64,000 nucleotides of DNA from Obrimoposthia wandeli (lineage: Eukaryota), in contig CDROCS010001386.1 in assembly GCA_977020255.1 (NCBI GenBank), positions 1 to 64,000 of the forward strand. The letters are read 5' to 3'. The translations under genes and the position numbers were made by a program. Shown piece after piece: positions 1 to 57,985 of this stretch; position 1 is the first letter of the stretch; every line of letters begins with the position of its first letter. Below the pieces are notes generated by a model. It worked only from the letters and a program-made list of their open reading frames with translations, had not been told where the DNA came from and made no database searches.

Positions 1-250
1 TATTCCTGACCTGTCGAATGACATACAATTTCTGATCGATATTGTCAGTTGCTGACGTCTGCAGATGAATGTCTACTACGTGGTTTGTTTTTAGTAAAGA
101 GAATTTCTATGTATATTGCCCGTATTACGTCTTGTCTCCATTTACTGATCATGATCTCATAACTAGCCTTGGTAGTGGTGATTTGTACGATCAGCATGAT
201 TCCTATGATCGTTCGATTCTTAAACTCAGGAACTAATGAAACAAGTCAAA

Positions 251-1600
251 TTACTCATATAGTACGGTCTTTCCTCCAATATGTTCATATATCGTTGGCT
301 GGTACTCTGGTGCTGGTTCATCTAGAAATGGTAGATGCTTGGTATAATTGTGTTGAATTTTTGTAAATTCATTTGACCTGTTCGTCTTGCGAGATCATGA
401 CGTTTCTTTTTTGATCTCGACTCTATCTTTGAACAACAAAACAAGATGAGTAATATTAATATTATAAATCCAATGATCAATTAAGTATTGGATTAACAAT
501 TCTAGAATACCATAACGTACTGTAGTATTCCTTGCTCTTGATGGTTAATATTTTAAATTTGTGTGCACTTTGGTTGGACTTGTCACTGAGAAGCACTATT
601 TTAGTTTGTCCAAATATGTAGTCTTCACATGTGACAACACTAATTCCATAATGTCCACTAGAAGTGTTATCATTTCGGTCATGGGACTATACACATTCGT
701 CCTGGACATCCTTTTACACATGATCATCGGCTTTGCCTTCAGGATGTCTTGATTATTTCTAGGGTGTTGTCTAGATTTCTCAAATGTAAATTATATTCGG
801 ATAGTGTCATCAATTCGGCTTTACTGGTTGGCATGAAAACACGGTACCAATCAATTACTACTCCATAGATCAATCCTTGTGCAACGGTGCACAGGGCCTT
901 GACTGACCTTTTGCGAGGTTTTAATTATCAATCGTTTGAGAGATATCTGTTTCTGATTGGTTCGTTTTGTTGTCTGTCGTTGTTTTTGACATCTCCTCGA
1001 TTCCATCTCGTCCGATAATCAACTTCCTTTGGTTTACCTTGTATCGTCAACTTTCCGAATCCATTTTTGGCGGACAAGCATGTTTTATGTCCTTCCATTG
1101 TTTCAATTATCACTCTCTTACTTCCATACTCACGTGTTTTGATGACATCGCCAATGAATATATACGTTGGTCATATCAACATCTTTTTGTATTTCCTTTA
1201 CAACTCGTTTTCTCCGCTTGCATCCGGCGAATGTTGTTGATATTCGGTCAGAAGTGTGCTGTCGGTCAGCTTCGTAATCTATTCGGAATTGATTCAGTAT
1301 TCTGTTTGTGGGTAAAATATCGCTTCATTTACTATGTTGTCTTCGATCCTTTCGTCTGGAGTACACAAGCACTTTGTTTGTTGGTCCATTTGGTCTTTTC
1401 ATCTTTACAAACTGAAATCTTTTACTGTCGGTTCTCATAGATCGAAGACATTTTCGGATGATCCACACATCAATTAGTCCTAACAACACTAATAGCATCA
1501 TGTCGGTGCCGGCGTATGGTACTGTATGGTGTAGTTGTGGATTTCGTTGAACCAGGAACTATTTCCGTGGTTGGAGCCTATCTCCTGTGCTCCCGTTATT
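251..1600 (-). pseudogene. Frameshifted accessory membrane-protein coding region of the element
   Basis: Manual minus-strand translation gives LIIGFIILILLILFCCSKIESRSKKKR (480-400; TM helix, CC, basic stop-transfer). After a 1-nt shift it continues LDEPAPEYQPTIYEHIGGKTVLYE* (stop 251-253). A second hydrophobic stretch MMLLVLLGLIDVWIIRK lies near 1500-1450. The ORF at 928..1113 is another fragment. Confidence 0.45.
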
Positions 1601-1625
1601 GGCATTAAACAACTTAACAAGCCTA

Positions 1626-2263
1626 TCATGCTAGCAATCTTTGGTATTGAAAGCTGGGCACTGTTGTTGTAGCTTCATTTATTTCTCGTTGTTGCTTCCT
1701 CTTTTCGGTGTATTTTTCTATTTCTCGAACGAGTAACGGTTTGAATTCCGTATTCGGTCTATTCTGTTTGATGTAGACCATCGCTTCTTCTGGCGTGTGA
1801 CCATGGTACTCTACCAACAAGGATACACCTATGGTAGGCGCTAACATCGTACCTTTTTTCTGATATATCAGAACGCCGTTTCCTTCTGTGACTTCAGCTT
1901 GGATGGTTTGAGTCAATTTCGTCAGATGTTGTTGTGCATCGTTTATCTCTCTCGATTGGAAGCATGTATGTATCGAGTGGTGTCATCTTCAGTATTTTGA
2001 CACAGACTAATTATCTCGTTTCCGACTTCAACAATGTTGATTACCCGGTTGATACTGTGGAACTTTAATCCAGCAGTATCTATATCTCCTGGATGACATA
2101 AAAATACTTTTGGCATTATCTGTGTAATTTTGTCGACTCCGGCTAAAAATAACCCGGTCAACGATAATGCTTGGAGGAAATTCTTTTCCTTTGGATCCTC
2201 CGGAATGTCGTCCATCCGTCTTTGTTCTTGCAACAGAAGTTGATAATTTGCCAACTGTCCCAA
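1626..2263 (-). CDS. Second dual-specificity phosphatase-like domain, catalytically degenerate (pseudophosphatase); split by frameshift
   Basis: ITQIMPKVFLCHPGDI...INRVINIV and VLIYQKKGTMLAPTIGVSLLVEYHGHTPEEAMVYIKQNRP align to the DUSP pattern. The P-loop Cys and Arg of HCxxGxSRS are absent. Confidence 0.65.
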
Positions 2264-2267
2264 AAAA

Positions 2268-2650
2268 TTAAGATTTGGGTTTGCAATACTTCTTCTTCTT
2301 CTCCTGTAGGTATTTTAACGCTTCTAGTACCTGCATTCGTCTAGTCTTTATTAGATATGCTAATACTAGGGTTGCTGATCGAGAAATTCCTTTCTGACAA
2401 TGTACCAACACTTTTCCTTTGTTCCGGAGTTCTCTGTGAAGTATTTCGTTTGTTTCTACGAACCATTCGAGAAGATTAGCGTCCATTGAGTCTTTTACTC
2501 TTAATGTCATAGCTCTGATCGTCTGATATTATTGCGATTTGTGATTCATTGTAACGTTGATCACATATGTTATTCCTTGTTCCAACAGTTTCTTTTCATC
2601 TGTTGCATCCTCCACATTTCCGAGGTATAACTTACCTGGAATGATCTCAC
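2268..2650 (-). CDS. Dual-specificity protein phosphatase domain (intact active-site motif); split by frameshift at ~2520
   Basis: MSEIIPGKLYLGNVEDATDEKKLLEQGITYVINVT (ORF 2529..3401) is followed by VKDSMDANLLEWF...GKVLVHCQKGISRSATLVLAYLIKT (ORF 2268..2510), a canonical DUSP signature. Confidence 0.92.
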
Positions 2651-3860
2651 TCATTGGTGGCATTAATTCTGACTCTTCAAGTTTTAGTCTTTCTAACCTC
2701 TTCTCTATTTGTTCGTCGATGTTAGTTAGTTTCGCCAGTTTCTTTCCTCTCAGCATTCGTATTGCTGGAGAGATATTCATTTTTGTCTCTGATGTCTGTT
2801 CCTTTGTTGAGTCTTCTTCCGACTCGGTCTCCTCTGCAGATTTAATTCGTCTTTCTTGTATATTTTGTTTCACGAATTCTATGTTTTGTCTTTTTCTGCT
2901 TTCTTTAGCGAATTCAATCTCCATGGTTCTTCCGAATCGCTCTATTATGTTATCTTCGGATTCTGTTGATTCTGTATCGTTACTTTCCGGTTCGCTGTCT
3001 TCACTAGACTCGCTCGAAGGGTATTCTGGTATGTCTGTCTGAACTGAAATTAATGAAGGTGTTAGAATAATTGGATTGATTTCCCCTTCGTATTTGTGAA
3101 TCGGATACGGTATTACACTATCTTTAAGTATCTCAACTTGGAACTGTGCTCCATAGCACATGACAATTGTTTCCAATTTACCCATGATGGACAATCCATC
3201 AAAATAGGTAACATTCAGCTTAGATATCGGTGTCTTCGCATAATTAATTAAGTTTACTCTTTTCCGGTTGATGACGGCCATCGATTTTTGTAAAGTATAA
3301 TTTCGTCGTTTATCGATGTATGGCATTACACTTGGCGCGGACGATACTATTTCAGCATGATATTTTGGCTGAATTGAGTTGGTCACTTGTTCTCGGATCA
3401 TATTGATTCTTTGTGGCTTCTTATTTTTAGCTTCCCACTTCCGGTATCCGCTGTCAATGCGTAACTCTGCCGTTAACTTTGATGATTTTATTGTTAGTCA
3501 CTTCCGGATGGTTTGGCGAATGGAATCCCCCTTCTATTACGCTCAACCTTACAGATACTTCCGTTTGATCTGTCTCTAACCGGTGAGATTCTGGTATACA
3601 ACATACAATTGTTTTTCCATCAAAGTATTTAGTGTCCATCTGACAAATTATCTTTTCAGTGTCAGCGTCGATTAAATGGACTCTCATGATATCTCTTTTC
3701 CCATGTGAATTACGTAATACCATTGGCCATTACATCGTGAGTATTCTTGTTTGAGTCTTTTTGGCGTACCATGCAGTATGTGACCACCGGCCGGTTCCTT
3801 CTCTTCCTGGGTAGTCCTGCTTCAATTGCTGTCATAGTTCTGCCATGCAACTATGTTTGG
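2651..3860 (-). CDS. Unknown accessory polyprotein segment between integrase and DUSP (acidic Ser/Glu linker; possible divergent domains)
   Basis: ORFs 2529..3401 and 3454..3723 are co-oriented with, and adjoin, the neighbouring ORFs by small frame shifts. No confidently recognisable family. Confidence 0.5.
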
Positions 3861-3862
3861 TG

Positions 3863-5330
3863 TCAATGTGATTTCGTTATCACTTTCTCAGTTGTAAACA
3901 CATTGGAATTTTGATAAAGTGCTGCGACTAATGTATTTCCGTCGTAGTATAACACTCTAAGTTCGCACAGAAATTCGTTTTTGAGTGCATCTTGCACAAT
4001 GACTTCTTGATCCACATCTTTCGGTTGTGTTTTTTCTAAAACGACTATTATCTCTTCGTCTTCTTCTAATATCTCTTGTGGTGCGATGTGTCGGATTACT
4101 TCCTTTTCCTCTTGGTACTTCATTCTGAGCATACCAATTCTCGCTGATTTTTTCTCGCTACCACTCGTCATCATGTTTATGTAGTTCCGATCACTTACCA
4201 TTCGTGTAAGTTTAATGGTATTGGTATTTGGCTTCGATTTCTGTGATCTTAACTCATATCGTGACGCATTATCTTTATTTGGTACTAATTTGCATCGATT
4301 TGCATGTACAATCATCGGTTCCTTGTTCCGATTCTCTTCGTTGATTACTTTCAAATTTGTTGAAGTTGTCTGGATCACCTTGTATGGTCCTTTGTATGGT
4401 CTATGAAGTTTAAACGATAGACCTGGTTCGATGACTGGATAAAATATCATCCACTTGATCTCCGAAATAAATTCATGTGGTTTTGCTTTTTTTGTCGTAT
4501 TGTTCTTGTAACCTTCTTGATTGAATTTCAGCTTCAATCCGGCTTTGGTCCAAGCATCTTGTAACCTTTCCTTCATGACGACAATGTATTGTTCAGTTTC
4601 TAGGTACTGAGATGTTGGCTCGGTCCACTCCAGATCCATTGGCATATTGTTCTGTCTGAGATACATCAGATAGAATGGTGTGTGACCCGTCGCCTCTCGA
4701 ACTGAATTCCTGTAAGCATATAAACATGAAGGTAAATATTTATCCCAATCCTCTTGCTTGTCTGAGCAATAGGATTGTACCATCATACATAAAGTTTTTA
4801 TTAAACCTTTCTACCAGACCATCTGTCTGTGGGTGATATGGTGAAGTTTGTAACTTCATAATTCCGAATATCTTCGATACTGCTTTTATGACTTCTCCAG
4901 TGAAGTTCTTTCCTTGATCCGTTAACAACTTTCTAGGCACTCCGTATCGAAATATTATCTCTTCTACTAAGATTTGCGCTATTGTTTCAGCTTTCTGGTT
5001 CTGCATGGGATATGCTTCTACCCATCTCGTCATGTAATCCGTAAATACTATGACATACTTGTTTCCTTTACTTGATTCTCTCAATGGTCCCAATATATCC
5101 ATCGCTGTGAATTCCATTGGTGCCAAAGGAACTGGCATTGGTTTCAGTGGAACTTTAGTACGAGTTCAAGTGTCTTTTCTGGTTAAACATACTTTACATT
5201 GTTTACACCATTGTTTTTATGTCGTCTTCCATACCATCCCAATGGTTCTTCTCTTTGATTCTGGCTATCGTCTTTCGCCTGACAGATGTCCTCCCAGTGT
5301 TCCATCGTGATATTGGATCATCACTGCTGT
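3863..5330 (-). CDS. Integrase (HHCC, DDE core, GPY/F motif) with C-terminal extension; frameshifted
   Basis: YHDGTLGGHLSG...W...CKQCKVC lies at ~5310-5190. The core reads AMDILGP...TDQGKNF...YHPQTDGLVERFNK, followed by WDKYLPSCLYAYRNS...TPFYLMY and KLHRPYKGPYKV. Confidence 0.95.
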
Positions 5331-5510
5331 TTTCAATGACTTCGGAATTACTACTACTATCTTTCCGACATTATTGACAATATACAAGATTCCTTCTTTT
5401 TATCAGTATTTTTCGTCATTTCATCGTTTAGATCTCCTTTCACCAACAATTCTTTGATTAGACTCAGTTCTTCATCTTCTTTCTGTTCTTTGATGATCTC
5501 TTTGTCTATT

Positions 5511-6900
5511 TTACCCGTCTTTAGCAAAATCGTCAGTAGATTTTGCTTCTCCTTTTTGGTCATTGGTTTCATCTTCTTCTGGAATTATGTTTCCTTTCTC
5601 GTCTACATTTGTCAATCTCGATAAACAATCTGCGTTGCCATTCGACTTTCCGGTTCTATAACGGATTTCTAGATCGAATTCGGCCAATTTTAGAAACCAT
5701 CTGTTTAATCTACTCATCTCATCTCTATGTTTATATAAGAACTGTAGTGGTTTGTGATCTGTATACAGGAATACCTTTTGTCCTAGCAAATAGTGTCTGT
5801 ACTGTCTACATGAATACACTATGGCTAGACATTCCTTTTCGATAACAGAGTATCCTCTTTCGGCTCTGTTTAATCCTCTACTTGCATACGCAATGACGTG
5901 TTCTCTTCCTTCGTCATCCTCTTGTCCCAATACTGCTCCTACAGCATAGTTACTTGCATCTGTCATGAGTATGAATTGTCGGTTTATATCTGGAAACGCT
6001 AATATTGGTGCTTTTATCAATCTTTCTTTTAAATGCTCGAACGCTTGTTGAGCTTCTTCTCCCCATATGAACTTCTCATCTTTTCTCGTCAACTTTCTCA
6101 ATGGTGTTGCTATATCTGAAAAATGTTCAACAAATCGTCTATAATAATTCGCAAGACCTAAAAAACTCTGTATCTCCTTAACAGTCTTTGGCGCTAGATG
6201 CGCTTTTACTTTCTCGATCTTTGCTGGATCAGGTCGGATGCCTTCTTTCGATACTATATGTCCTAAAAATGTTACTCGCTCTTTAGCCCATTCGCATTTT
6301 GTAGGTTTAACTTTTAATTTAGCGTTTTCCAGTCTTTTAAATACAACTTCAAGATTTTTTAAATGTTCTTCGAACGTTTTCGAAAATATTATTATGTCAT
6401 CAATATAAACCATCGTGTTTGCACACGATGCGAGTACAAAATTCATGCAACGCTGAAATGTTGCTGGAGCTCCTGTCAGTCCGAATGGCATCTTTTTCGC
6501 ATTCGTATAATCCATCTCCGCAGGAAAAGGCTGTTTTGTGTTTATCCTCTTCCTCTATCTCGATTTGCCAGTATCCACTCTGCAAATCCAATGTCGTAAA
6601 ATAATCTGAATTACCCAATTTATCGAGCATCTCTTCGATTCTAGGTAATGGATACACATCTTTTCTTGTGATCTTGTTCAGTTCTCTGAAATCTATACAG
6701 AATCTCATTTTCCCATCCTTCTTTTTTTACCAACACCACAGGTGCTGAGAATGGCGAAAAACTCGGTCTAATTACTCCTGTTTTAGACATATCTTCGATC
6801 TGACTTTTTACTTCATCTTGTAATTGTAATGGTACTCGGTATGGTCTTCTTCTGACTACTTTGTCTTCTGTCAGTGGTATTGTGTGTTTTATGACAGGTG
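5511..6900 (-). CDS. Reverse transcriptase + RNase H; frameshifted at ~6725 and ~6500
   Basis: RFCIDFRELNK...YPLPRIEEML...LDLQSGYWQI, MPFGLTGAPATFQR, VYIDDIIIFS; RNase H TDASNYAVGAVL...EKECLAIV...TDHKPL. Confidence 0.97.
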
Positions 6901-6906
6901 TTTCTC

Positions 6907-7300
6907 CTATGTCATATGGATTTTTGCAATTACTTTTGGAAATTTATGTATTAGATCAAGTAATTGTTTCTTTTCTCTAGTTGTCAGTCTTTCTGATTGG
7001 ATTACTATTTCTTCGTAATCATTCGTATCTTTATCGAGTTTCATAGCGCATACAGTGGAATTCTCCATCTGTGCTATCTTTCCCAACCTCATTCCTCTGT
7101 ATAATAGAATGTCATTGTTGGTTGTATTCATCAGTCTAACTGGTATTTTGTGGTTTTCGATCAGACATACTGTACTCACAACTGGTAATTCGTATTTCTC
7201 TATGAAATCTCGTGATGGTTCGAACACAACTGGTCCTTTATCTTCTGATAATGTGTGACCTTGAATGAAATTGTGATCTTTTACCGATTTTTATAGGATT
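6907..7300 (-). CDS. PR-RT spacer region of Gypsy pol
   Basis: IPVRLMNTTNNDILLYRGMRLGKI resembles the spacer commonly seen upstream of RT in invertebrate Gypsy pol. It is linked to both neighbours by 1-nt shifts. Confidence 0.6.
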
Positions 7301-7313
7301 CTCTATAATTACA

Positions 7314-9377
7314 TCAATTTGGTTTTATTTGTCTGTTTGATGTACTATCCTTCAATCTTGGATCTTGTAAATCAATGCTTATCCCTTTAAGTTGTGATAG
7401 TACATCCATTCCTAAAATTGTAGGTTCAGGACATTCTTTCATGATTCTAACTGGTATAGTGATCGTATTACGTCCAATTATAAATGTACATGGTAATATT
7501 CCCGTCACTTTTACAGGGTCTCCATTGACCGATACCAAGAATTCATCTGGTTCTGCCATTGTTCGTTTCTGTTCCTCTGTCAAACAGTCTTCACTTACTA
7601 TCGAAGCTACAGCACCTGTATCAATTAAAGCTTTTACTCGTAAATTATTTACTCTAATGATAGCTGCTGGTCGCTGTGCTCCATTTATGTTTCCCATATG
7701 GTATATTGTATTTATCGAATTATTACACTCTGTCCGTCCACTTCCTATGTTTGGATAGTGAAATCTAATGTTTCTCACTTGTCGATCTATTATTCTTCGA
7801 CAAATCGGACATGATACCATTTCATTCGCACATCTCCGACATGTTCTTACATGTCCGCATGGTAGAAAGGCAACTTCTATTTTGTTGACCATGCAAACTG
7901 CGCATTCCGGATCTTCTAGTATGTATTCTAGTTCATTTATGTACTCTTTCTCTTTTGTTTCAATTGTACTGTCATCTTTATCTCGCAGTAATTCAAAAAT
8001 CGATCCGTATCCGTTTCGCGTAGTTTTTATTTTTAATTCTACCAATTCTCTGATTCTTTCTGCTTCTTTTGGATATAATCTTCTCACGAATGACACTACC
8101 GGTGTGTCTTGTTGAGCCAAAATCTCTTTCCGTGTGATTTGGTATTCGATTATACATTCGGTTTTCTGTTCCTTTTGCTTTATTTTGTTTTTTAAAGTAC
8201 AAAATTCGCAAAATTCATGATGTAAAATTTTCTTAGGTAGCTCAAGAGTGTATCTGTCGATAATTCGTTCTTTTTTACACTTGTGGCATTTAATTACGTC
8301 TTTACTTTTTGCCAATTTTTTAAGTCTTGGATCTTCGAAAGTTACTTCTCGATACTGTTCGTCACATTCGTTCACTTCTCGCATAACTTCGAATATATCT
8401 TCAATTCGACTATTCGTTATTACTCTACCTGTTATTAGAGCTGATTCTCCTTTTGGAATCCCGTCACTGTAATCGAAATCGGGTGCTTTTCCCATTTGGA
8501 TTTCTGGTACGTTTGACGTTTTCAGTTTCAAAAGAAATGGACAATTTGGTGCATCTCTTTTATGACGTCTCATTGGGTTTTCATTCTGTTCCCATTCTCT
8601 AAACTTTACTCTACACCATACGCATCGTACTACTATCTCCTGACCATAACTGCTTGTCGCGTTTAACATTTCTAAACCTGATCTTGCCATTTTACGTGCC
8701 ATTCCTTTTGAATAGTACTGTTCTAGTATGTTTCGTCTCTTTCTCTCGAATCTCATGGGATCCCTTTCTGACAGATTTACATATGTTATTTTTCTCCTCG
8801 TCGTATCTTGTGGTCCGAAATTTACATTTTTGTAGTGAAGTATCGACTTTGCTAGCGCTTCCTGTTTTTTGTCTGGGTACGAACTTCCCATACGGAACGT
8901 AGTGCATTTTTCCTTTTCGACTATAGGTCCTCTCAACATTTTTATCTCTCTCACTGAACTGTCATTCTTATTACTCTTGTTGTTTGGTAGTATAATTATT
9001 CCTTCAAACATTCGTATTACGTCCATCCCAATCATGACTGGACTACCGCAATCTGTGAATATTCTAGCATTCAACTGCAATGCTCTTCCATCGATATTCA
9101 ATGAACATTTTAGTGTTCCTTCCGACACTACATCTGTACCATTCACGTTAACAAATGTCTGTTTTCTAGGACATACTTCTCTTAATTCTTTTGATGACAA
9201 GATTTCTTTACTCAGTACTGATACTGCAGATCCGGTATCAACTTCGGCAAGATATTCTCTTCCGTTCAATGTTACTGCTACTTGTGGTGGAGCATTTGGA
9301 TTCTCATTGGATATCCTAGACTTCAGAATTCTTCTGGAATTATCTTTTTGTCTTTTCCTCTGCTTGTGGAATCTCAC
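7314..9377 (-). CDS. Aspartyl protease 1 - BIR - degenerate BIR - RING (IAP module) - aspartyl protease 2
   Basis: PR1: LAEVDTGSAVSVL...MIGMDVI. BIR1: CVWC-x16-H-x6-C (CVWCRVKFREWEQNENPMRRHKRDAPNCPFL). BIR2-like: TF..LA..DVIKCHKC-x18-H-x6-C. RING: CAVCMVNKIEVAFLPCGHVRTCRRCANEMVSCPICR. PR2: ALIDTGAVASIV...ILGMDVL. Confidence 0.92.
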   Translation of the reverse strand: MRFHKQRKRQKDNSRRILKSRISNENPNAPPQVAVTLNGREYLAEVDTGSAVSVLSKEILSSKELREVCPRKQTFVNVNGTDVVSEGTLKCSLNIDGRALQLNARIFTDCGSPVMIGMDVIRMFEGIIILPNNKSNKNDSSVREIKMLRGPIVEKEKCTTFRMGSSYPDKKQEALAKSILHYKNVNFGPQDTTRRKITYVNLSERDPMRFERKRRNILEQYYSKGMARKMARSGLEMLNATSSYGQEIVVRCVWCRVKFREWEQNENPMRRHKRDAPNCPFLLKLKTSNVPEIQMGKAPDFDYSDGIPKGESALITGRVITNSRIEDIFEVMREVNECDEQYREVTFEDPRLKKLAKSKDVIKCHKCKKERIIDRYTLELPKKILHHEFCEFCTLKNKIKQKEQKTECIIEYQITRKEILAQQDTPVVSFVRRLYPKEAERIRELVELKIKTTRNGYGSIFELLRDKDDSTIETKEKEYINELEYILEDPECAVCMVNKIEVAFLPCGHVRTCRRCANEMVSCPICRRIIDRQVRNIRFHYPNIGSGRTECNNSINTIYHMGNINGAQRPAAIIRVNNLRVKALIDTGAVASIVSEDCLTEEQKRTMAEPDEFLVSVNGDPVKVTGILPCTFIIGRNTITIPVRIMKECPEPTILGMDVLSQLKGISIDLQDPRLKDSTSNRQIKPN

Positions 9378-11504
9378 TGTAGCTCACTTTAGGCCATCTT
9401 ATCATTAAGATGCCTCTCTTGAACTTTTCCTTCTCTTCCTTTAATTCCTTCATTGGATATAGGTTTAACGCCACTTCTTCCTTGTCTGGTAACGGAATCT
9501 TCGGTTTTCCTGGTATCTTTGCATATACTCCTGGACTATCATTATCGTCGTCGTTATCGTCTCGATAGTTTCTTGGTTCTCTCATCATGGTTCTCGTTTG
9601 GTGTTGTTCCTTCTTGAGGGCTCGCAACTCGTTCTCGTGATGATGGTGCATTAGATATTTTGCTAAAAATGGAAAACATCCAATTATAAGTTGCCAGGTG
9701 ATTCCGGTTATCCTGTATAAACTATACGTAGACAACACCTGGGCTATAATTACCTGCACAAATTTAATTATAACATAAATACCTATGATACCCGAAAATA
9801 ATTGTCCTAAGACAAGGAATTTCCCCCACATCTTTCTAAGTGTCTGATGTGCTGCTTCCTTGAAATGACTTGGCGATAATAACATATCGAAATTCGCATA
9901 TCTCGCTCCTGGCGGTAATGCTCGATGTACCATCTCCGTAAGTACTCTGGCTCTTCTTACTGGAAACATTATTTCGTTCCACGCCGCTTTTAAATCTTTT
10001 TCATTGTACAATCCTGCGCTCTCCATATTTTCCACCGCTTGGAATTTCATTTTACCTTTAAGATTCGTCATTCTTATCATCGCTGGGGTTTTCGTTGCCT
10101 TCCGATCAGGTAACGTTATCCATAGATTATTCGTCATCTGATATTCAGGTGCCATTATATTAGAGCAGCTGATTTCTTTAGTTGGAGTGTCTTTTGGAAG
10201 TAACATTCTCGTGATTGGTTCAACAAAAAGATCTTTTAGATTATACGTTACTGCCAATTCACTCGTACATCGATTTGTTTTTCTCAACTGTACCTCTACT
10301 TTATTACACTTGTAAGTATACAATACTTCTCCCATGGTTTTAGCAAATACTCCTTCATCCAAGGGTAATAATGGTGCTACCATGTCTGGATTCGTAATAG
10401 CTAATGCTAACTTTGTTCTTACGATCTCTTTGTTTAGCTGGCAATCTCTTTCGATCATCATTCGATATAACTGTTCCATTTGCATCAATCCTTTATGATA
10501 ATAGAAATCAATTTTATTATTAAAATACGTGTGTAGCTGCATATCTTTAGGTTTTAGCTTGGTTTCTGCCAATGCTATTGCTTCTTTAGACAAAACTATT
10601 CCTGGATAGTTTGTAGTACTAACAGTCATTCCGCATCGCGCTTTGTTTCTCTTTTTAATAAATATCAATCCTTCTTCTATTGATGTTGCCATTAACAGTG
10701 TAGGTGTTTTTGTCATTGGGATTGGTCTTGTTTCATTTAACAATCCTTTTCCTGCTTTATTATACAGGAACCCTTCTCCATCCTTATTATACAGGAATCC
10801 TTTTATTTTATTAAAGCTAATCTCTTTCAAAAATACTAAAGAGCATTGCTTCGGATTTATGTTATACACAATTGTGGATTCACCTGTAAAACAAGATGCA
10901 TCTGTCATTTTACATTCTGGATACTTCATCATTAGTTGTGTCTTTTTATCAAAATTGGCGGTCCATGTTTTTAATTCGATTTTGTAAGTTACATCCATTA
11001 CTAACTCAGATACTTTGGTTCCACGCACGTTTTTTGTTTCTCCGTCACAAGATCCATCAGCCCATCGTTGTCCGACTCTCGTGACTGTTTCGTATCGTCT
11101 CACTCCAATTTGTACTTCAGGTTTGTAATTCTTGTCTACCTCTATCGTTCCGTTCGAAATGCATCTTCGCAATCTCTCGGCAAAACCTTATGTGCCTTGT
11201 ACGGTGTGGTAGGTGTGATTTCTGACATAAAACTTCTATGACCACAATAGAATTCGTGATAACTTGAATGGATTGAACATTCTTTCACTTCTACTTGTAC
11301 TTTATCAACATCCTGATACACAAAGTAGTTTTCAACACCTTGAACTTCTAGTTTTGACGGTTGTGATTCTGGGCAGTCTTCGCTGTCAAGCAGTGAATAC
11401 TTTTGTCCCATCTTTGGTATGCTACAGTCATATGCTATCAATCCTGATGCCTGTTGCATTCCCATAAACATTACTAACATCATCATCATCATTGTTGTGG
11501 ACAT
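9340..11504 (-). CDS. Envelope glycoprotein, chuvirus/Jingchuvirales-like (class III fusion-type); N-terminus encoded at the end of the gag ORF
   Basis: Signal peptide MSTTMMMMMLVMFMGMQQASG then LIAYDC...SLLDSEDC. A 1-nt shift at ~11150 joins the 610-aa ORF containing YFNNKIDFYY...DCQLNKEIV...GEVLYTYKCNKVEV...CTSELAV..LFVEPITRML and a C-terminal hydrophobic region. Confidence 0.8.
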
Positions 11505-14500
11505 ATTTGGTTGATTGTTTCTCTCTTTCGGACGGTATTGTTTATTTTCTCTTTGACGATTCTCATGACATTGTTCGTCATCGTCTTCGTTCATTTCCAC
11601 AATGGTTTTAGCGTAGTCACTTAATTTTGCCCAACCTCCGTTTTCGTCAATTCGTCTCTGTAATACATTCTCGATCAAATACATCGCTTCATTTATTCCT
11701 TGTTTGACTTCGTGAGGTTGGCTCGTTCGTTCCGTCAATTGGAAACATAGATATGTGATCGCTGTAATTAACTTTTTATTTGTAGTCTGGTTTCCACATA
11801 ATCTCGCTAAAACTTCACCGTCATAAAATCTATCTATCGATGCATGGTATACATGATTCGCGGTCATTCTCTTTACTGCAGACATCTGTGATCTAACTGC
11901 TTTAGTCAAATTGTCTGTTATATCGGTTGTTTCATCTCTGTACATTTTAAACAACTTCGGCTTCACTTGCCTGAGAATTCCCGTAAGTATATCTTTACTA
12001 CTTGGAGTTTCCGAATTCATATCACCTCTGATATCTTCATTCCTCTCTGCACTATACTGCTCTAATGACGCTGCTAACTGTCCAATACTTAGATGTCTCT
12101 CTTCATCAGTTTGTGGTGCTGTTAGAACATTTCGTAATATACTTTCGCCTTTTCTAGGTCTTCCAGGTCCTCTTCGAAAATACTGATACTCAGCTTGATT
12201 CTCTCCTGGATCATACGTTTCACCATTATACTGTATCTCTTGACTTGGTCCTTCTTCATGGCCAATCTCTTCATTTTGTCGCATCATTTGCTCTGCTTGT
12301 CTATCTTTGTATGCGGCATGCCAAATTGGTGAATCCAAATCTACAATCTCGGAGACTTCGTCTTCTCCTACTAGTTGGGTTACGGTTTCGTTTTGTCTCA
12401 CTTGGTTAGCTGTATCCGTGACTTCATCTTGTCTGATTGGAATTATATCTGGTTCTGGTGGCACCTCGACCACTGGAGTTGTCAACTCATTTTCTAAATT
12501 CATGTCTTGTAATTCAGCTACGTACGGTTCTGGTGTGGATGTCTTGTTCCAAGCTTCAGCTACATCATTATCTCCGCTTTCACTTGAACTGTCTAAAATT
12601 TCTATAGGCGTTTTTATCATTTCTAACGCAGAATTCAATATCTCGGTTAATCCTTCATTATCTACTAACTCTTGACGTCCTACAGTGATGACATCAATTT
12701 TTTCCTCTAATTCATTTCCTATCGGATATCCAAACTCGACTGGTACGTCCTCATCATCTAGTGATCTCACTTTATAATGGAACAACATATTCATTCCATC
12801 AATTTCAAGTTTCTCAGCCAAGTTTTTCCGAATCGTTTTCATTGTTTGATACACGTTAAGTTTTTCATGTATTATCTGTCCGGAAATTAATCGAAGTGAA
12901 ATTTTCATCGTTCCTTTTTGGTTTGATCTCTGTACATAACGACCATAACCTTTCAGTAATCCTCGGGGTACTTCTTTGTAACCCAAGTTATCATGACTAT
13001 GTTTAACCAATTCTGCACGCACTTCTTCCAATCGGTGCACTTTAATTGTTTGCAATTTGGCCAAAACTTCTGGAGCTTCACTCGTTTCATCTAACGGTTG
13101 ATTTAACGTCTCCTTAGCTTCACTAATTATCTTTTTTACATTTTCCATACTCGTAGCATTTCTTGCTGCTTCTACATGATCAGTCATAGGTTGTGCGTTA
13201 CACGTTTTCTCTATTGGTGTCTCATACGCTTCTAATATTCTATTCATTAAATCATTCATCTCTTCTCTCGAATGTGGACTTCTCTCTTGTTTCGACAACG
13301 TAGATGAATTCGCCATCTTTGTATGTGGTGAATCTTTAATTATTCCCAACATTCGTTCAAATTTACTATCACTATCCTCAAAATCTATTTCGCGTCGCAG
13401 CTCGGTTTCGCGATTCCTATCACTGTCATCGCTTACATAACTAAAATTTCCTTTCGGTTTCGGCGAACTCTCTCGACTATTTGTCTTGTCGACATTATTA
13501 TTATTATATCTACCAGAATTATTATATCTCTCAGCTCCTTGCTGTCCTACGTAATTATTGTATCTCTCAGCTCCTTGCTGTCTGTCTGCATAGTTATTGT
13601 ATCTACCTGGTGACTGTTGTCTATCTGTATACTGATTATTCAGTCTCCATGGCTGTGGAGTATATCCACCACCTCTATTCCATGGCGGAGGTGAATTATA
13701 TCCTCTATAATTATTTCCAAAATTATTATTACCGAAATTATTATTTCCAAATCTGTTAGTTCCGAACTCTTTACTTCTCGTACAATCTCTCGAATAGTGA
13801 CCCATTTGTTTACACGTGTAACACATTATTCTCCCTCGAATATCTATCTTATTTTGTTCATCTTCGAACTGTACTCGACGACTATTCTGTCTATTATCAT
13901 AGCGTCCTCTAAAATCATTTCTTCGGAAATTCGATTCAAAACCGCTTCCTCGATTATTGAATCTTCCGTCACTATTTCCTGCATTATTTCCAAATCGAGA
14001 GTCACTTCGCTCTCCTCTGTTTGCATTATAATTCCTATCGTCTCCTCTCCAAGGTTGGCGATTTCCTGAATTATCTCTATTAAATCTATTCCTGGAATCA
14101 TCTCTATTTCTATTCCACGAATCATTATTATTTCTACCTCTTGAATCATCTCGATTCCTGTTCCAAGACTCACTATTATTTCTACCTCTCGAATCATCTC
14201 GATTCCTACTTCGGAAATTATCTCTATTTCCGTTACTGGATTCATCTACTTTTTCAAACTTATTTTGTCCATAATTTCGATTCTGAAAATTACTCGGTTC
14301 TGTTTTATTCACGAAGACCTTTGTCTTATCGTCGTCACCTGCAGTCATTGCGTAGATTGCCAATGCTGCGTTATTTTTTATATTTTTCTCAATCTCTCTC
14401 GCCTTTCGTACGGCGTTATCAAAATCATTTGTATCCGATACTGCTAATAACACTTTAATATCCTTTTTCAATCCTCCTCTAAATATATCTAACAAGACCT

Positions 14501-15396
14501 CTGCCATTTCATTTTGGTTCCGGTCATTTTCCGCTGCTTGTGCTTCTGGAGCTACAGGATTACCGTCCTGATTTCTCATTATTCTTCTTGGGTACGCTCT
14601 TGCGGCCAAGGTTCTCAAAACATACGCGTATTCATTCACGCCTTCATCATGTTTCTGTTTCCGTTCTCTCATGAGTCGCTTATTTACTTTGGCTAAGTCT
14701 CCTAATACCAATTTTCCAATAAAAGCATTTTCCAACGTTGGCCAGTCTAAACGTTCTGCTTCTGTCAAATGTTTATACACTTCAAGTGCTAATCCGGTTA
14801 AATGTGCCTGTACTCTGACACATTTTTCTTTATCGTTCCATCCTTGAACATCTGCACAACTCGAATATTCTGCGAGGAAGTCACAAATACTTTCCTCATC
14901 TCCTTTAAACTTTGTAATCTGCAATGATCCTGAAAAATTGGGTCTCAACGTCGCATTTAAAGCTTGTGCCAACTGCTCGGCATTCATGTCACCTACATTA
15001 TTTCCTGCATTATTTTCTGCTTGAGCTCCTGGTTGAGCCATATTTTCAACTATAACTTCTTCAACTATTTCTTCAATATTATTCAATGGAACTTCCTCAA
15101 TCACTACTGGATTGGCAATTTCAAATTCTTCTTGGTCTATGTCACCAAATAATTCAGTCAAATTAAAACTGCCGGTTGAAACCGCTGATTGATCAACGTC
15201 TCTTTCTGATACGTTTTCTTCGACTCTAGTCTTTTCTGTTACTTTGTTATCTGTTTGGGGAACCTGTTCAATTCGGTTAACTTTATTATTATTTATCTCT
15301 TCCTTGGGAATCTGACTTTGTCTTCTAGTATTATACGCGGGTCCTTTTCTATTATCCGTTGTCTTATCAATTATGTATTCGTTTACGATATCAATT
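11142..15396 (-). CDS. Extended Gag polyprotein: capsid, R/N/D-rich repeats, CCHC knuckle, ubiquitin-like domain, AT-hook, Bcl-2-like domain, Env signal peptide
   Basis: Capsid-like FKGDEESICDFL...GWNDKEKC...LTGLALEVY...RKQKHDEGVNEYAYVLRTLA; CYTCKQMGHYSRDC at 13782-13824. The reading frame is open upstream of the listed start to a stop at ~15397. Confidence 0.88.
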
Positions 15397-15494: not shown

Positions 15495-16235
15495 TAATTA
15501 CTTCGAGTATCAATCCACTCGATTCTCACTTATCAAATTTACTGGCTCGAGGAACAAATCCACTCGACTTCTCAAAACCTATCAAACTCTTAACTTCGAG
15601 GAACAAATCTACCCGATTTCTCAAAAACTTATCAAATTCTTAACTTCGAGGAACAAATCTACCCGATTTCTCAACACTTATCAAATTCTTAACTTCGAGG
15701 AACAAATCTACCCGATTTCTTAAAAACTTATCAAATTCTTAACTTCGAGGAACAAATCTACCCGATTTCTCAACACTTATCAAATTCTTAACTTCGAGGA
15801 ACAAATCTACTCGATTTCTCAAAAACTTATCAAATTCTTAACTTCGAGGAACAAATCTACCCGATTTCTCAACACTTATCAAATTCTTAACTTCGAGGAA
15901 CAAATCTACCCGATTTCTCAACACTTATCAAATTCTTAACTTCGAGGAACAAATCTACTCGATTTCTCAAAAACTTATCAAATTCTTAACTTCGAGGAAC
16001 AAATCTACCCGATTTCTCAACACTTATCAAATTCTTAACTTCGAGGAACAAATCTACCCGATTTCTCAACACTTATCAAATTCTTAACTTCGAGGAACAA
16101 ATCTACTCGATTTCTCAAAAACTTATCAAATTCTTAACTTCGAGGAACAAATCTACCCGATTTCTCAACACTTATCAAATTCTTAACTTCGAGGAACAAA
16201 TCTACCCGATTTCTCAACACTTATCAAATTCTTAT
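15495..16235. repeat. Tandem array, 49-50 bp unit, ~15 copies, in the element's 5' leader
   Basis: Unit CACTTATCAAATTCTTAACTTCGAGGAACAAATCTACCCGATTTCTCAA, with period 49 measured at 15661/15710. Confidence 0.95.
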
Positions 16236-16289
16236 CTCAATTTACTTATATCTTCTTCTGAACTTATTCTCAATTGTCTATATTCTTCT

Positions 16290-16590
16290 GCTGAAACTTA
16301 TTCTCAATTTATCTGAAACTTATTCTCAATTTATCTGAAACTTATTCTCAATATCTGAAACTTATTCTTAATACCTGAAACTTATTCTTAATATCTGAAA
16401 CTTATTCTCAATATCTGAAACTTATTCTTAATATCTGTACTTATTCTCAATATCTGAAACTTATTCTTAATATCTGTACTTATTCTATTTACCTGAAACT
16501 TATTCTCAATTATCCGCAACTTATCTGAACTTATTCTATTCACCTGAAACTTATTCTCAATTATCCAAAACTTATCTGAACTTATTCTAC
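16290..16590. repeat. Tandem array, ~19-20 bp unit, in 5' leader
   Basis: Repeated CTGAAACTTATTCTCAAT(A/T) variants. Confidence 0.85.
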
Positions 16591-16615: not shown

Positions 16616-16634
16616 ATCCTCACTCGGGGCACCA
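16616..16634 (-). promoter_or_regulatory. Primer-binding site complementary to elongator tRNA-Met
   Basis: The minus strand reads TGGTGCCCCGAGTGAGGAT, 8 nt after the LTR's CA end. It matches the 3' end of metazoan elongator tRNA-Met (human complement TGGTGCCCCGTGTGAGGAT from memory, 1 mismatch). Confidence 0.8.
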
Positions 16635-17048
16635 CTTTAATATGTTGGGGTTTCTATACGAAACTTGGTATAGAGCCTCTTAGTGTGCGGAGGACCCCAA
16701 CGTGAGTTCGATTAGAAGCAGGTCTTAAAGTTGGTCGTGGCCTACTTAGTGTTATGGTTGCCTAATCTCTTGTACTATCTGAAGGTGTTTGATTTGATGT
16801 CTCTTAGTCTGAAGGGTGTAAAAACAACTTGTTCTAATGTAGGAAATTGTTTATTCAAAATTCACGTAACTAACACCACAATACGTTTATGTACGTATTT
16901 CTAAAAAGTATGATAAAATTCCTAAAGGACTTCTGTGAGTCTCTACAAGAAGTGGGGATGAACCACGTATCGATTTTACGCTAAGGGGAATCGAGATTTT
17001 TAGAGTTGTTCCTTTAACTCGAGAATAAGCTCAAATTATAGATTTTCA

Positions 17049-17642
17049 AAAACTTTATTTTATCTTGGACAAACTTTAGATTATCAATACGCAATGAAGG
17101 GTAAAATCTTCTTTTAGATCGGATAAAACTTTATTTTATCTTGGGCAAACTTTAAATTGTCAATACGCAATGGAGGGTAAAATCTTCTTTTAAATCGGAT
17201 AAAACTTTATTTTATCTTGGGCAAACTTTAAATTGTCAATACGCAATGGAGGGTAAAATCTTCTTTTAAATCGGATAAAACTTTATTTTATCTTGGGCAA
17301 ACTTTAAATTGTCAATACGCAATGGAGGGTAAAATCTTCTTTTAAATAGGATAAAACTTTATTTTATCTTGGGCAAACTTTAAATTGTCAATATGCAATG
17401 CAGGGTAAAATCTTCTTTTAATCGGAAAAACTCTTTAAATTATCAATACGAAATGCAGGGCAAAATCCTCTTTTAATCGGAAAAACTCTTTAAATTATCA
17501 ATACGAAATGCAGGGCAAAATCCTCTTTTAATCGGAAAAACTCTTTAAATTATCAATACGAAATGCAGGGCAAAATCCTCTTTTAATCGGAAAAACTCTT
17601 TAAATTATCAATACGAAATGCAGGGCAAAATCCTCTTTTAAT
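17049..17642. repeat. LTR tandem arrays: 76-bp unit x~5 grading into related 55-bp unit x4
   Basis: Periods 17201/17277 and 17421/17476/17531/17586. Confidence 0.9.
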
Positions 17643-19192
17643 CTTTACTCAATAAAGGCCAAACTTCCTTAAATTTTCGGTCTTTATACCTTTATTTTCT
17701 CCGAAATCACTGGATCCTCGTCTCCTAGTATAGTCTGCTCGAGTTGGCGAGATCAGGAAATAGATTGAAATTAAATAGACTGGAGATAACTGGGAATTTG
17801 CTGCCTTGTGGTCTATTCCTCGGTAGATCGCGATATTGATTTTTCCGGTTGTAATTTCTTTTTCTTATCGACGACTTTTATAGTCGATTCTACAACTCCT
17901 GTCTGTCAGTCAGCAATGTCGACAGCGGTTTCACTGGAGTCTTTTGCGGCAGCTGAAAATTAATTTTAACACTCCAAATTAACTGCACGAAAATGTGCTT
18001 ACCTTGATTGACGGTTTGATTGACGTTGCTAATTTTCTTTTTCGACTATAATTAATTCTAATGTTTCCTTTTGCTTTTTTGCACTTTTAGTTGATTAATT
18101 CTAACTTTTATACACATTTCACACTATACACGACCTTCGTGGTCCTCCTAATTTTTACCCTAAATTCCACTAATTTTAATTCTAAAACTTAAATTAATAT
18201 TTTAATTTAATTTTCAACCTTGCTTTCAAGGATTTTTATTTTAGTATTTAATTTACTAAAATATTTAATTTTCTTAATTCTCAACCTTAACAAATTAGCC
18301 TAATAGATTTTGGCTCAAAAAAACTTACATTGAGGAATTGTTGAGACGTCTGGCAGTTGGCCGGTTCTCACAGTTTCTCACAGAGTTAAGTGGTTGCAGA
18401 ACAGGTGGCGAATTCCCACAATATTTTTCTGATTTTCTTCTTGTTTTCTTCTTCTTAATTATTGACTCTAATAATTGGAATTCTTTGGGCCCTTTTAATA
18501 ATTTTAAAATCTCTTATATATACCTACACAAGAAACATGACTCTTCAAGGTCTTAAATTTATTCAATCCCATTTTATTTAATTTAACATTTTTTAGTTAT
18601 TTATTTCACTTTCTTTAACCTTACTTTTAGGGTTATATTTTCTATATATATTAATTAAATTCAAAATCCTAATCCTAACACCTTTATTAATTCAATTTTA
18701 TCAAATTTAATTCGTATATAGATGTTATATCTATTGAAATTGTTAGGTTTAGGAATTAGAAAATTAAAATAATTAGTTGATTTTATACTAAAATAAAAAT
18801 CCTTGAAAGCAAGGTTGAAAATTAAATTAAATATTAATTTTGAAATTCAAAACTAAAATTATTGAAATTAAGATAAATATTAGGAGGACCACGAAGGTCG
18901 TGTATAGTGTGTGGTATATAAGGTTAGAATTAATTACTAGTAAAGTGCAAAAAAAGTGAACAATATAGAAAACTGCCAACGTCAGCAGAAAAAAGAAAAA
19001 CCACTAACGTCAGCAGAAACGAAAAGGTAATTAATTAAACATCTGCCAATTTCTGATATTTATGGAATCAGTTGAAATTGACAGAAGCAAAAAACCCAGG
19101 GCGCAACAAGGATCGGTCGAAGCAGCAACCGGAGCAGCAACAGGCAGGTGGTAATTTAGTGGTAGTGCTCGGTTTTAATCGATTATTTAGAT

Positions 19193-19488
19193 CACAATCA
19201 AAGTCGACTGTGCAGATTATTTGAAAAAGACATTTAATTGGAAAACCCAACGACAATCAAAGTCGACTGTGCAGATTATTTGAAAAAGACATTTAATTGG
19301 AAAACCCAACGACAATCAAAGTCGACTGTGCAGATTATTTGAAAAAGACATTTAATTGGAAAACCCAACGACAATCAAAGTCGACTGTGCAGATTATTTG
19401 AAAAAGACATTTAATTGGAAAACCCAACGACAATCAAAGTCAACTGTGCAGATTATTGGAAAAGACATTTAATTGGAAAACCCAACGA
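19193..19488. repeat. LTR tandem array, 59-bp unit x5
   Basis: Unit ACAATCAAAGTCGACTGTGCAGATTATTTGAAAAAGACATTTAATTGGAAAACCCAACG. Confidence 0.95.
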
Positions 19489-19562
19489 CTAGAAAAATCC
19501 ATCTAATTACCAAGCAGCGGATTCAGTGCCGGACTCTACCCACAGTTACGGATAGGTGAGAC

Positions 19563-20055
19563 GTCTCGCATAAATTCATTGTCCGAAGTTGACAATTAGG
19601 TTTTAACAATTTTAACTTGTCTCGCATAAATTCATTGTCCGAAGTTGACAATTAGGTTTTAACAATTTTAACTTGTCTCGCATAAATTCATTGTCCGAAG
19701 TTGACAATTAGGTTTTAACAATTTTAACTTGTCTCGCATAAATTCATTGTCCGAAGTTGACAATTAGGTTTTAACAATTTTAACTTGTCTCGCATAAATT
19801 CATTGTCCGAAGTTGACAATTAGGTTTTAACAATTTTAACTTGTCTCGCATAAATTCATTGTCCGAAGTTGACAATTAGGTTTTAACAATTTTAACTTGT
19901 CTCGCATAAATTCATTGTCCGAAGTTGACAATTAGGTTTTAACAATTTTAACTTGTCTCGCATAAATTCATTGTCCGAAGTTGACAATTAGGTTCTAACA
20001 ATTTTAACTTGTCTCGCATAATTTCATTCATTGTCCGAAGTTGACAATTAGGTTC
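19563..20055. repeat. LTR tandem array, 56-bp unit x~8.5
   Basis: Unit GTCTCGCATAAATTCATTGTCCGAAGTTGACAATTAGGTTTTAACAATTTTAACTT. Confidence 0.95.
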
Positions 20056-22496
20056 ACGAAATCATTGTCCATCGTTGACAATTAGGCCTTTATACGAATC
20101 ATTGTCCACAGTTGACAATTCGCGTCTGAATTCATAACAATAGAATTTGCCGAGTTAAGAAAGCTTTACCCACACGATCTAAGTTAAGTTGAAGAAGTTT
20201 TAAGAGAGTTGTGTTATAAATTAACCAACCTAGAAAGAAGATTTGCATTCGCACCTTTATTGTCATAAGAATAAAGGTTAAACCTCCAAAATTCAAGCCG
20301 ATAGCAAAGTTAAATTATTGAGAAATCCATAACGCGAGCTTATTCTCGAGTTAGAAGAATAACTCTAAAATCTCGATCACTCCGAACGTAAAATCGATAC
20401 GTGGTTCATCCCCACTTGTTGTAGAGACTTACAGAAGTCTTAGGAATTTTTACTATACTTTTTAGAAAATACGTACATAAACGTATTGTTGTGTTTAGTT
20501 TCGTGAATTACCAATAAACGATTTCCTACATTAGAACAAGTTGTTTTTGAACCCTTCAGAGTAAGAGACGTCAAAACAAACACCTTCAGATAAGAAAGAG
20601 AGATAGGCAACTATAACACTAAGTAGGCCACGACCAACTTTAAGACCTGCTTCTATTCGAACTCACGTTGGGGCCCTCCGCACATAAGAGGATCTGTACA
20701 AGTTTCGTATAGAAACCCCAACAAAATAAGTAATTTGTAAACAGTTTATGACACTATTGCTTGAGGTATGGATTTTATTAAAAAATAAATGTAGGATACA
20801 TTATTTAATATGTTATATTAATTCTTTCACATAGATAAAATTAAAGTTAATATCAATGGTTTTGAATTAGTTCGAAGTTCCCATTTATTATTAAAATAAA
20901 TCTTATAACTTCTAAAATAGTTTATTTTATGTTCAAACTCAAAATTATATTTATTCTTGTTAACATCACATGTTTATTTACGCCAATAAGCATAAAATTT
21001 GAAATATTACAAACTTAAATTCAGATTTTCTCTTTAAAAATACATGTATATATATTTATATTTAGCCAATTTTACGTATAAATTCGTCATCAATTTAATA
21101 TTATTAACCAATAAAATTATTATGAATATGATTGAAGATGAACCATAAGATTTTTCCATTGTTATACTTAAATAATATTTAATCAAATATAATTAATTGA
21201 TATTTCGAGTATTTTTATCCAAAAATTTGAAGTATGGCAATAATTGAATTCACAAATATTTAATTAAGATTCAATAGCTAGGAGGTCATGTAATCATAGT
21301 AAAATACAATAATCTAAATCAAGTTTGCATCATATCGATTTGCTACTGGAGCAAAAGAAAATAGAAAGAAAGTACAATGGTGCATGAATAAGAGTTCACC
21401 TCACAGAACCGATCAGACTGAGTATGAGAAAATAAGTAGAACAAAAACAGATATCGTAGTAGTAACAGTAACAGGCTCCGCCTTTTAAACAGTAGGAATC
21501 GGTCTAGCATCAACTAACTACGTTCATACAGTATCATAAAATATTTCAATAAAAATAGCATGATAGAAGCGACAAAAATCGAGAAATATGCCTAAGGTAT
21601 TAGTATAAAAATAATTTTACATAAATTATTATTGTATTGATTAATTTCATATTTAAATTACTATGTTAAAATTATTAAATTGACAATTAATATAAATTAT
21701 ATATAAAAAGTTGTTTTAATCCATTTTCTGCATGAATAAGTAAGTCAAAATGGCGATAATTAAAAGGTGCATTTATCATCATTTAATAAAATTAGGCATT
21801 GTTATGGATGTTTATGTGAGCTTAATATGAAAGTTAAGAGAGCTCAGGTACAAATAATGAATATATTGTTTCTTGCATAAATTCCTACTGTATGGAAGCA
21901 ATGTAAAAGTACGAATTTTATAAGAAGTTTTCTAAGCCTTCTAAACGAGATTGTATGTTTTACGCAAAATGCATATTAAAGATTGCATAGATTTGATTTT
22001 TGGGTGATAATATATACTAATGTATTCCGTATTCATTTCTATATACAGTTAATAGAATTAGAATGTGTCGTAACTATTCAGAAAAAAACAAATTTAAGGT
22101 ACTTTAGTTAAATTTCAATACGTTTATAAAATTAACTAATATAATTTATAAATATTTATGTTAAAAAACATATTCAATGTGTTATTCTTAGATTTTTGTG
22201 CTGTTGTATTTAAATGCCTTTGGTTGTACGTGCTCTTCAGGCCAACTCTGATTCTAATCGACTGTACTTCGTAGAATATCAGACTTGTCATGACAAAAGT
22301 ACCAGTTTTCGAGACATGTCCTGGAAATAGGTCAACTACGTATTGAACAAGATAGTTGTACTATTTCCAAGAAGCTGCGAAACTGACTTTTGACGACGTT
22401 GTCCGACAGTCCACGATCTATGCATATATCTGTGTATACACAATTGTTGGGTGCTGTCTGATGACCTGTGCATCATCACCATGGCGGTGGTACTCC

Positions 22497-57591: not shown

Positions 57592-57985
57592 GATATATGT
57601 CACAGACTAGCTTGGCGATGTACGGATGTCTCGCTCTCATATATGTCACAGACTAGCTTGGCGATGTACGGATGTCTCGCTCTCATATATGTCACAGACT
57701 AGCTCTGCGATGTACGGATGTCTCGCTCTCATATATGTCACAGACTAGCTTGGCGATGTACGGATGTCTCGCTCTCATATATGTCACAGACTAGCTCTGC
57801 GATGTATGGATGTCTCGCTCTCATATATGTCACAGACTAGCTTGGCGATATACGAATGTCTCGCTTTCAAATATATGTCACAGACTAGCTTGGCGATGTG
57901 CGAATGTCTCGTTCTCATATATGTCACAGACTAGCTTGGGTGATGGGCGAATGTCTCGCTCTCGTGTATATCACTGACTACCTCG
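57592..57985. repeat. 46-bp tandem array inside left Polinton TIR (~9 copies; ~4 copies in right TIR)
   Basis: Unit ATATATGTCACAGACTAGCTTGGCGATGTACGGATGTCTCGCTCTC, period 57601/57647. Confidence 0.92.

Follow-up and report, generated by a model that had tools for sequence, protein, structure and literature searches.

The window, that is, the whole 64-kb stretch of DNA analysed here, carries an env-bearing LTR retroelement of the Ty3/gypsy type at its left end, on the minus strand. The element is visible over 20.7 kb and runs off the left edge; no 3' LTR was found in the 64-kb window. Behind its integrase lie two DUSP-type domains, A and B. The features of the element, from its 5' end onwards, are the following.

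16643..20723, minus: 5' LTR of about 4.1 kb, TG...CA (ends placed from its inverted termini)
16637-17061 and 20306-20729: inverted terminal arms of the LTR, 88% (from the sequence)
18120-18287 and 18745-18911: inner inverted pair of the LTR (from the sequence)
16617..16634, minus: primer-binding-site-like TGG... directly after the LTR, which we take to be the primer-binding site (from the sequence)
11160..15395, minus: Gag with one CCHC knuckle (Pfam zf-CCHC, 8.9e-6), ubiquitin-like and BCL2-like stretches, and the start of Env
~13130-12633, minus: ubiquitin-like (Ubl) stretch (weak Pfam UBX match, 0.075; tblastn to relatives that have ubiquitin matches)
~11920-11630, minus: BCL2-like stretch (weak Pfam Bcl-2 match, 0.094)
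9560..11490, minus: Env, a Monjiviricetes (chuvirus-like) fusion glycoprotein (PF24664, 3.6e-77 and 9.8e-13), with a frame change near 11156
7317..9350, minus: protease 1, BIR (~8702-8532), RING (~7913-7782) and protease 2 (Pfam)
4230..7290, minus: reverse transcriptase (RT), RNase H and integrase (Pfam and alignment; 8 frame changes and 1 stop in 1000 aligned codons)
2660..4230, minus: coding-like region whose acidic, Ser/Glu-rich linker end runs in frame into domain A (codon model)
2657-~2236, minus: DUSP domain A, catalytic type (Pfam DSPc, PDB matches, conserved columns)
2492-2490, 2405-2376 and 2281-2264, minus: D-loop Asp, P-loop and N-loop of domain A (from the sequence)
~2137-1704, minus: DUSP domain B, predicted pseudophosphatase (sequence profile, Atlas, alignment-guided model)
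255..1662, minus: probable C-terminal membrane-protein module, heavily broken (architecture and spacing as in eight of nine relatives)

The LTR region (16637-20729) contains tandem arrays of 76, 55, 59 and 56 nt beside its nested inverted repeats. The leader (15547-16524) has arrays of 49 nt and 20 nt. Rfam and tRNA scans were empty. The retroelement lies 3.5 kb downstream of a probable host gene on the same strand. Pieces of this gene are seen at 42968-24305 (minus): a PDZ exon (PF00595, 1.9e-6), a Pro-rich last exon, and a stretch that we presume to be myozenin/synaptopodin-like. Between two inverted arrays of a 46-nt repeat (57384-58084 and 62366-62828), which are separated by about 4.3 kb, lies an ORF on the minus strand (58714-59016). 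We take this ORF to resemble the last part of a Polinton-type DNA polymerase; it had no significant Pfam match.

In the segment 9350-7317, the BIR and RING domains are sandwiched between the two protease copies (Pfam: BIR, 6e-9; zf-C3HC4_3, 6e-12; gag-asp_proteas, 1.7e-16, in two stretches). The integrase core occupies 5165-4743, and its C-terminal part reaches ~4230. It lies upstream of the two DUSP domains and on the same strand, as the sequence-only reading had described for a tandem of DUSP and pseudophosphatase; both P-loop motifs that it named are in place. The region between integrase and domain A is broken near 3870, 3720 and 3480. At the stops near 3865 the pol frame may actually finish, with a separate 3' ORF behind them. 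Three spaced Y(Y/F)DG words are found in this region, at ~3950, 3620 and 3200. For 1-1625 and 2660-4242, each read in three frames, Pfam returned nothing significant. The stretch preceding domain A had, by eye, resembled a worn-out third protease. This candidate was rejected, as profiles of 17 and 4 protease copies gave no score above 0 bits. At the other end of the pair, the stop at 1626 is possibly not the true end, with a further frame change near 1660. A homopolymer run of at least 5 nt lies within 15 nt of 6 of the 14 break sites, compared with a background of 12.5%. Some of the breaks are therefore explained by slippage or by read error, but not all of them.

The gene content recalls Burro/GYPSM1, the giant Ty3/gypsy elements of planarians, which exceed 30 kb with their LTRs (PMC6431247, as far as its available text goes). 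Common to both are Gag-CCHC, the Ubl and BCL2-like stretches, an Env placed between gag and pol in the same frame, the BIR, and the order protease, RT, RNase H and integrase. The projected coding span is also similar, about 4,900-5,050 codons here and 4,873 and 5,140 aa in Burro (same source). However, Burro1 proper is described there with three CCHC knuckles, MATH, Smc and ankyrin repeats, and Burro elements with 2-3 CCHC. This element has one CCHC, and Pfam at E up to 0.1 found no ankyrin, MATH or Smc. Two protease copies and a tandem DUSP pair also set it apart from Burro as reviewed in that text. By its domain content the element is Burro-like, not Burro1 itself; its Ubl and BCL2 matches are weak and its continuity is read across frame changes. 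The sequence-only reading is supported in that a retroelement carries the pair. It missed the setting, a probably giant element of Burro-like type whose other cargo includes a BIR-RING and a BCL2-like domain. The words "phosphatase" and "DUSP" are absent from the available running text of PMC6431247. The literature searched contained no DUSP-bearing retroelement; the primary Burro papers may already annotate such a domain.

Nine relatives (P0143-P0151) were recovered, all env-bearing single polyproteins, unnamed or mislabelled, with 48-54% identity over the matched part. They have the gag-env-pol gene order of this element and, like it, a long extension after the integrase, of 391-709 residues in all nine. 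The slot just behind the integrase holds a third protease copy in four of them. After the slot come a signal-like segment (nine of nine) and an ectodomain; in eight, another hydrophobic segment lies 280-414 residues behind the signal-like one. The slot varies among the relatives, whose cargo consists of a third protease, ankyrins or Ig; in this element we place the DUSP pair there. The C-terminal 390-710 residues of the relatives look like a second membrane protein: a signal-like segment, an FN3-like part by eye (Ig by Pfam in P0151), a TM segment and a short tail. Such a protein may act at the surface or bind a receptor, as a second one of its kind in these elements. Section 7 of PMC6431247, in its available text, makes no mention of a second membrane protein after the integrase. 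P0148 also has ankyrins at the post-env position. P0150 and a further locus, L001, are retroelement sequences that had been assigned to bacterial genome bins; they are probably eukaryotic contaminants.

The searches found no second element with such a pair. Neither DSPc nor BIR was present in ten proteins scanned with Pfam at E up to 0.5 (for P0148, 25 of 28 rows), and RING was absent among the Pfam matches listed for P0143-P0151. PF00782 occurred in none of the 18 long proteins matched (2524-8033 aa). At 207-660 aa there was no element-borne homologue of domain A or of its N-terminal extension, the best 120 of 226 matches being all generic DUSPs with at most 43% identity. Likewise, there was none among the 18 matches at 227-2000 aa. 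A GTDB scan gave one locus, L001 (42% identity), which ends before any cargo. The evidence for the pair thus comes from one broken copy.

Domain A has VHCQKGISRS as its P-loop (2405-2376, minus strand). Two breaks interrupt it, a stop in frame at 2531-2529 and, near 2285, a frame change; it was searched with X at both. With the breaks bridged in this way, it covers positions 1-131 of the 133 of Pfam DSPc (E 3.9e-33; 114.5 bits against a curated cut-off of 33.5). The D-loop Asp, the HCx5R(S) motif and the N-loop Asn are all present. In a set of 177 DUSP domains, 23 columns are conserved in 85% or more of the members; domain A keeps 21 of these. In intact copies, a domain with these residues is likely to be an active phosphatase. 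The earlier description of A as active is borne out by this intact motif set, but it does not hold for the copy as assembled. Here the stop precedes the catalytic loops, so no active A can be made. The same reading placed breaks at ~2520, ~2265 and ~1930. There are indeed three, although the first is the in-frame stop, and the two frame changes lie near 2285 and, in domain B, within 1982-1946.

Among solved structures, domain A matches DUSP10 first (E 4e-23), then DUSP16, 4, 2, 8 and 1, all of them MKPs. The catalytic domains of DUSP10/MKP5 and DUSP16 are its nearest solved relatives, and its top pairwise match is a mollusc DUSP bearing rhodanese. An HCQxGxSRS P-loop and a PNLNF-GQL N-loop are common to A and DUSP10. 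Typical MKPs have an N-terminal rhodanese domain with a KIM, and the substrates of DUSP10 are JNK and p38 (available part of PMC13147768). Domain A differs from them in having no rhodanese/KIM, with 0 Pfam families in the 322-aa piece upstream, and in being fused to a dead DUSP. It also has Leu at the column of the allosteric Tyr435 of DUSP10, located through the PDB Y435F entry 9o8w, where a typical MKP has Tyr or Phe. In a FastTree phylogeny, domain A falls among insect atypical DUSPs (support 0.87), apart from the MKP-type entries, of which few were sampled. Judged from these comparisons, domain A is an MKP-like catalytic domain at best, and we do not class it as a typical MKP.

Domain B presents IYQKKGTMLA at the P-loop position (1868-1839, minus strand), and its frame change splits it into two halves. 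The C-half matches DSPc with E 1.1e-4 and 22.4 bits, below the curated cut-off of 33.5, and DUSP28 in the PDB (E 2.6e-4). The N-half has no Pfam or PDB match; in Atlas, the top cluster for it carries the name DUSP1-like (0.94). All 10 of the best family-bearing Atlas matches for B belong to the DSPc family or clan. Among 1.84 billion proteins, the C-half has five matches, DUSP-like and 25-32% identical, and in four of them the loop is a normal HCxxGxxRS. When its break is bridged with X, domain B spans the whole profile of the 177 DUSP domains and scores 35.0 bits, against 6.1 for the best shuffle (262 of 300 shuffles reported, the remainder under the reporting limit). This profile is slightly circular, five of its source proteins having been found with B itself. 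Folded from its single sequence, the C-half is uninformative (pLDDT 51, best Z 4.9). An alignment-guided model of the C-half only reaches pLDDT 83, with Z up to 11.2, rmsd 1.7 and 85 aligned residues (SDP-1). Foldseek returned nothing at E 0.001 for this model, its top rows being all DUSPs. By profile and guided model, domain B is a DUSP fold, as had been proposed.

Its catalytic site is another matter. Domain B is about 20-30% identical to any DUSP and keeps 8 of the 23 conserved columns, mostly in the hydrophobic core. The core hydrophobics, the P-loop Gly and the Arg preceding the N-loop are conserved. The His, Cys, both Ser and Arg of the P-loop are missing, as is the Pro-Asn of the N-loop. 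The D-loop column falls inside the masked stretch, and by eye neither frame has the Asp. As given in the available part of PMC13147768, the catalytic set consists of Asp, Cys and Arg plus an Asp-Ser-Asn network. The codon of B at the Cys site is three bases from any Cys codon, and that at the Arg site two bases from any Arg codon. Conversely, the copy itself shows little decay by substitution. In-frame stops number 1 in 4310 codons (hand-chosen segments); with a count of 1-6 stops, substitution per site comes to about 0.1-0.8%. The copy also retains 233 of the 252 pol columns invariant in the nine relatives. Set against these values, the codon distances indicate that the losses in B are not decay of this copy. 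Domain B was very probably a pseudophosphatase before that decay began, and its pocket should not bind phosphate. We also considered B as a duplicate of A, and the tree did not support it. B is no closer to A than to other DUSPs and is not the nearest relative of A (rank 45 of 178), and the branch lengths are 1.45 for B and 0.85 for A.

Does the pair belong to the element? Strand skew and GC are uniform over 1-15,000. The DUSP pieces have an A content of 0.35-0.41 and GC3 of 0.38-0.40; the element has 0.37-0.41 and 0.28-0.39 (GC3 without the RT-RNase H row, which is off frame). Four host-like ORFs show A of 0.19-0.26 and GC3 of 0.60-0.69. The non-element DNA of the stretch is AT-rich, like that of planarians, which contrasts with the GC3 of these four ORFs. 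A codon model trained on the element gives z 5.4 for the region from integrase to DUSP (2660..4230) and z 4.9 for the pair, relative to resampled sequence. The opposite strands of both regions stay near the resampled mean, and non-coding controls reach z 2.2 and 3.3, which leaves a margin that is real but moderate. Past the pair, a signal-like stretch (~1662-1590) starts at the end of B. Some 390 codons further there is a strong hydrophobic segment (~480), and behind it a short Tyr-bearing tail to ~255. Sequence matches of this module are weak (TM part, E 0.004; tblastn to relatives, E 0.89). Its codon-model value, z 3.1, is the same as that of its opposite strand and of the non-coding control (z 3.3). 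The spacing of these segments matches the architecture of the relatives, and on this ground we place the pair in their cargo slot.

A host gene or retrocopy that adjoins this insertion, or was dropped into it, would agree with the lack of any other DUSP-bearing element in our searches and with the invisible 3' LTR. We nevertheless regard it as very improbable, the least probable of the alternatives considered. The DUSP region has no introns, and its composition and codon pattern are those of the element and not of the host. The N-terminal extension is in frame and has no host-family match, no tandem live/dead host DUSP appeared among the matches, and the location is the cargo slot of the relatives. 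The pair therefore belongs to the element with high probability, while its being in frame with pol is only rather likely.

Live and dead phosphatase domains in one chain are known elsewhere. In Cdc14, a dead N-terminal DUSP domain is the docking or regulatory partner of the live one. Compared with it, the order is reversed here, and B matches DSPc without the weak DSPn match seen in A. Receptor PTPs likewise combine a live D1 and a dead D2 in one chain, but these are classical PTPs. Both cases are analogies only. DUSP folds are also borne by viruses (poxvirus VH1/OH1, baculovirus PTP and PTP-2, and giant-virus proteins). These are single domains in DNA viruses, and they match domain A more weakly than the MKPs do. 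Poxvirus VH1 is packaged in the particle and acts on viral proteins during assembly or entry.

Our overall reading is that of a captured MKP-like phosphatase with a dead docking partner, damping stress-kinase signalling. We hold it tentatively, at slightly under an even chance. Of the two pathways that the sequence-only reading named, MAPK is a plausible one to be damped, and none of the results bears on STAT. An ancestor of the element would have taken over the catalytic part of a host phosphatase of MKP-like type and left its rhodanese/KIM docking domain behind. Intact copies would produce the pair within a polyprotein of about 5,000 residues, or from a 3' accessory ORF. Lying between integrase and an internal signal sequence, it would be cytosolic. 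The element protease would cut it free, perhaps leaving it membrane-tethered through that signal sequence. The substrates of domain A would then be JNK/p38, the stress MAP kinases, or some comparable protein of the host; that the target is a stress MAPK is, from the matches of A, somewhat short of an even bet. Domain B, presumably unable to hold phosphate, could make up for the missing KIM as a folded partner that docks, regulates or stabilises. By analogy with the live/dead chains above, the chances that B helps A are about even. Together with the BIR-RING and the BCL2-like domain, the pair would keep the expressing cell alive. Stress-kinase damping fits the IAP and BCL2 cargo, and it fits the reported protective role of the Burro1 BIR-RING, which is said, second-hand, to guard planarian stem cells from apoptosis (available part of PMC13465017).

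Other functions have to be weighed against this. The phosphatase might serve the element, being packaged and dephosphorylating Gag, the Env tail or the integrase in assembly or entry, with B as a packaging or structural adaptor. Its probable co-translation with Gag and Pol, the absence of a KIM domain, the Tyr motifs in the possible downstream tail and the frequency of DUSPs in large DNA viruses all speak for such a role. However, nine close relatives show no DUSP, which makes it dispensable for the core cycle. The remaining cargo (BIR, RING, BCL2-like) is host-directed, and the best matches of A are MKPs. We consider this role unlikely. Marginally better, though still unlikely, is that only A is functional cargo and B a functionless relic, kept open by lying inside the polyprotein. 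The long branch of B, its identity of about 20-30% and the loss of the whole pocket would be expected of a relic. Conversely, its losses are concentrated at catalytic and hydrogen-bond positions, core positions and full length are kept, and both Atlas and the guided model still see a DUSP in it.

The sequence-only reading had called B STYX-like and suggested substrate trapping. As a STYX-like trap, B would bind phosphorylated substrate and compete with host phosphatases or feed them. Its P-loop is dead and contains two Lys, and STYX is among the fold matches of the guided model (Z 9.6, tied with active DUSPs). Nevertheless, the likeness to STYX does not go beyond the fold and the missing Cys. 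STYX, DUSP24 and DUSP27 are listed with a changed Cys (available part of PMC13147768), in STYX to Gly (PMC3507883, also available in part). As described there, STYX, MK-STYX and DUSP27 change the Cys only, whereas B has lost the whole pocket. STYX retains His, Gly and Ser-Arg-Ser, with VHGNxGISRS where B reads IYQKKGTMLA, and the STYX-type entries P0136 and P0137 conserve HGxxGISRS. Since STYX keeps the Arg, and B lost it along with the His, both Ser and the N-loop Asn, phosphate trapping by B is very unlikely. Neither the label nor the proposed trapping is supported here.

A docking partner of the live domain remains our preferred role for B. In its widest form, one polyprotein would carry a full survival kit: a BCL2-like domain, an IAP and a MAPK phosphatase in which a dead DUSP replaces the docking domain. 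A second surface protein, of FN3/Ig type, would follow, and its signal sequence would anchor the pair to the ER. This complete version is doubtful. If it holds, an LTR retrotransposon would be rewiring the kinase signalling of its host, a case not described before, and the slot after integrase would serve the clade as a general place for cargo. The live/dead pair, with a dead partner that has lost its whole pocket, would be a clean case for the question of what such domains do when they bind no phosphate. Burro-type elements already serve as a model of transposons with host anti-death genes. From its sequence, the retroelement-borne DUSP pair appears as an addition to the known anti-cell-death cargo of such elements. 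It would widen the Burro-type cargo from the executioners of apoptosis to upstream kinase signalling.
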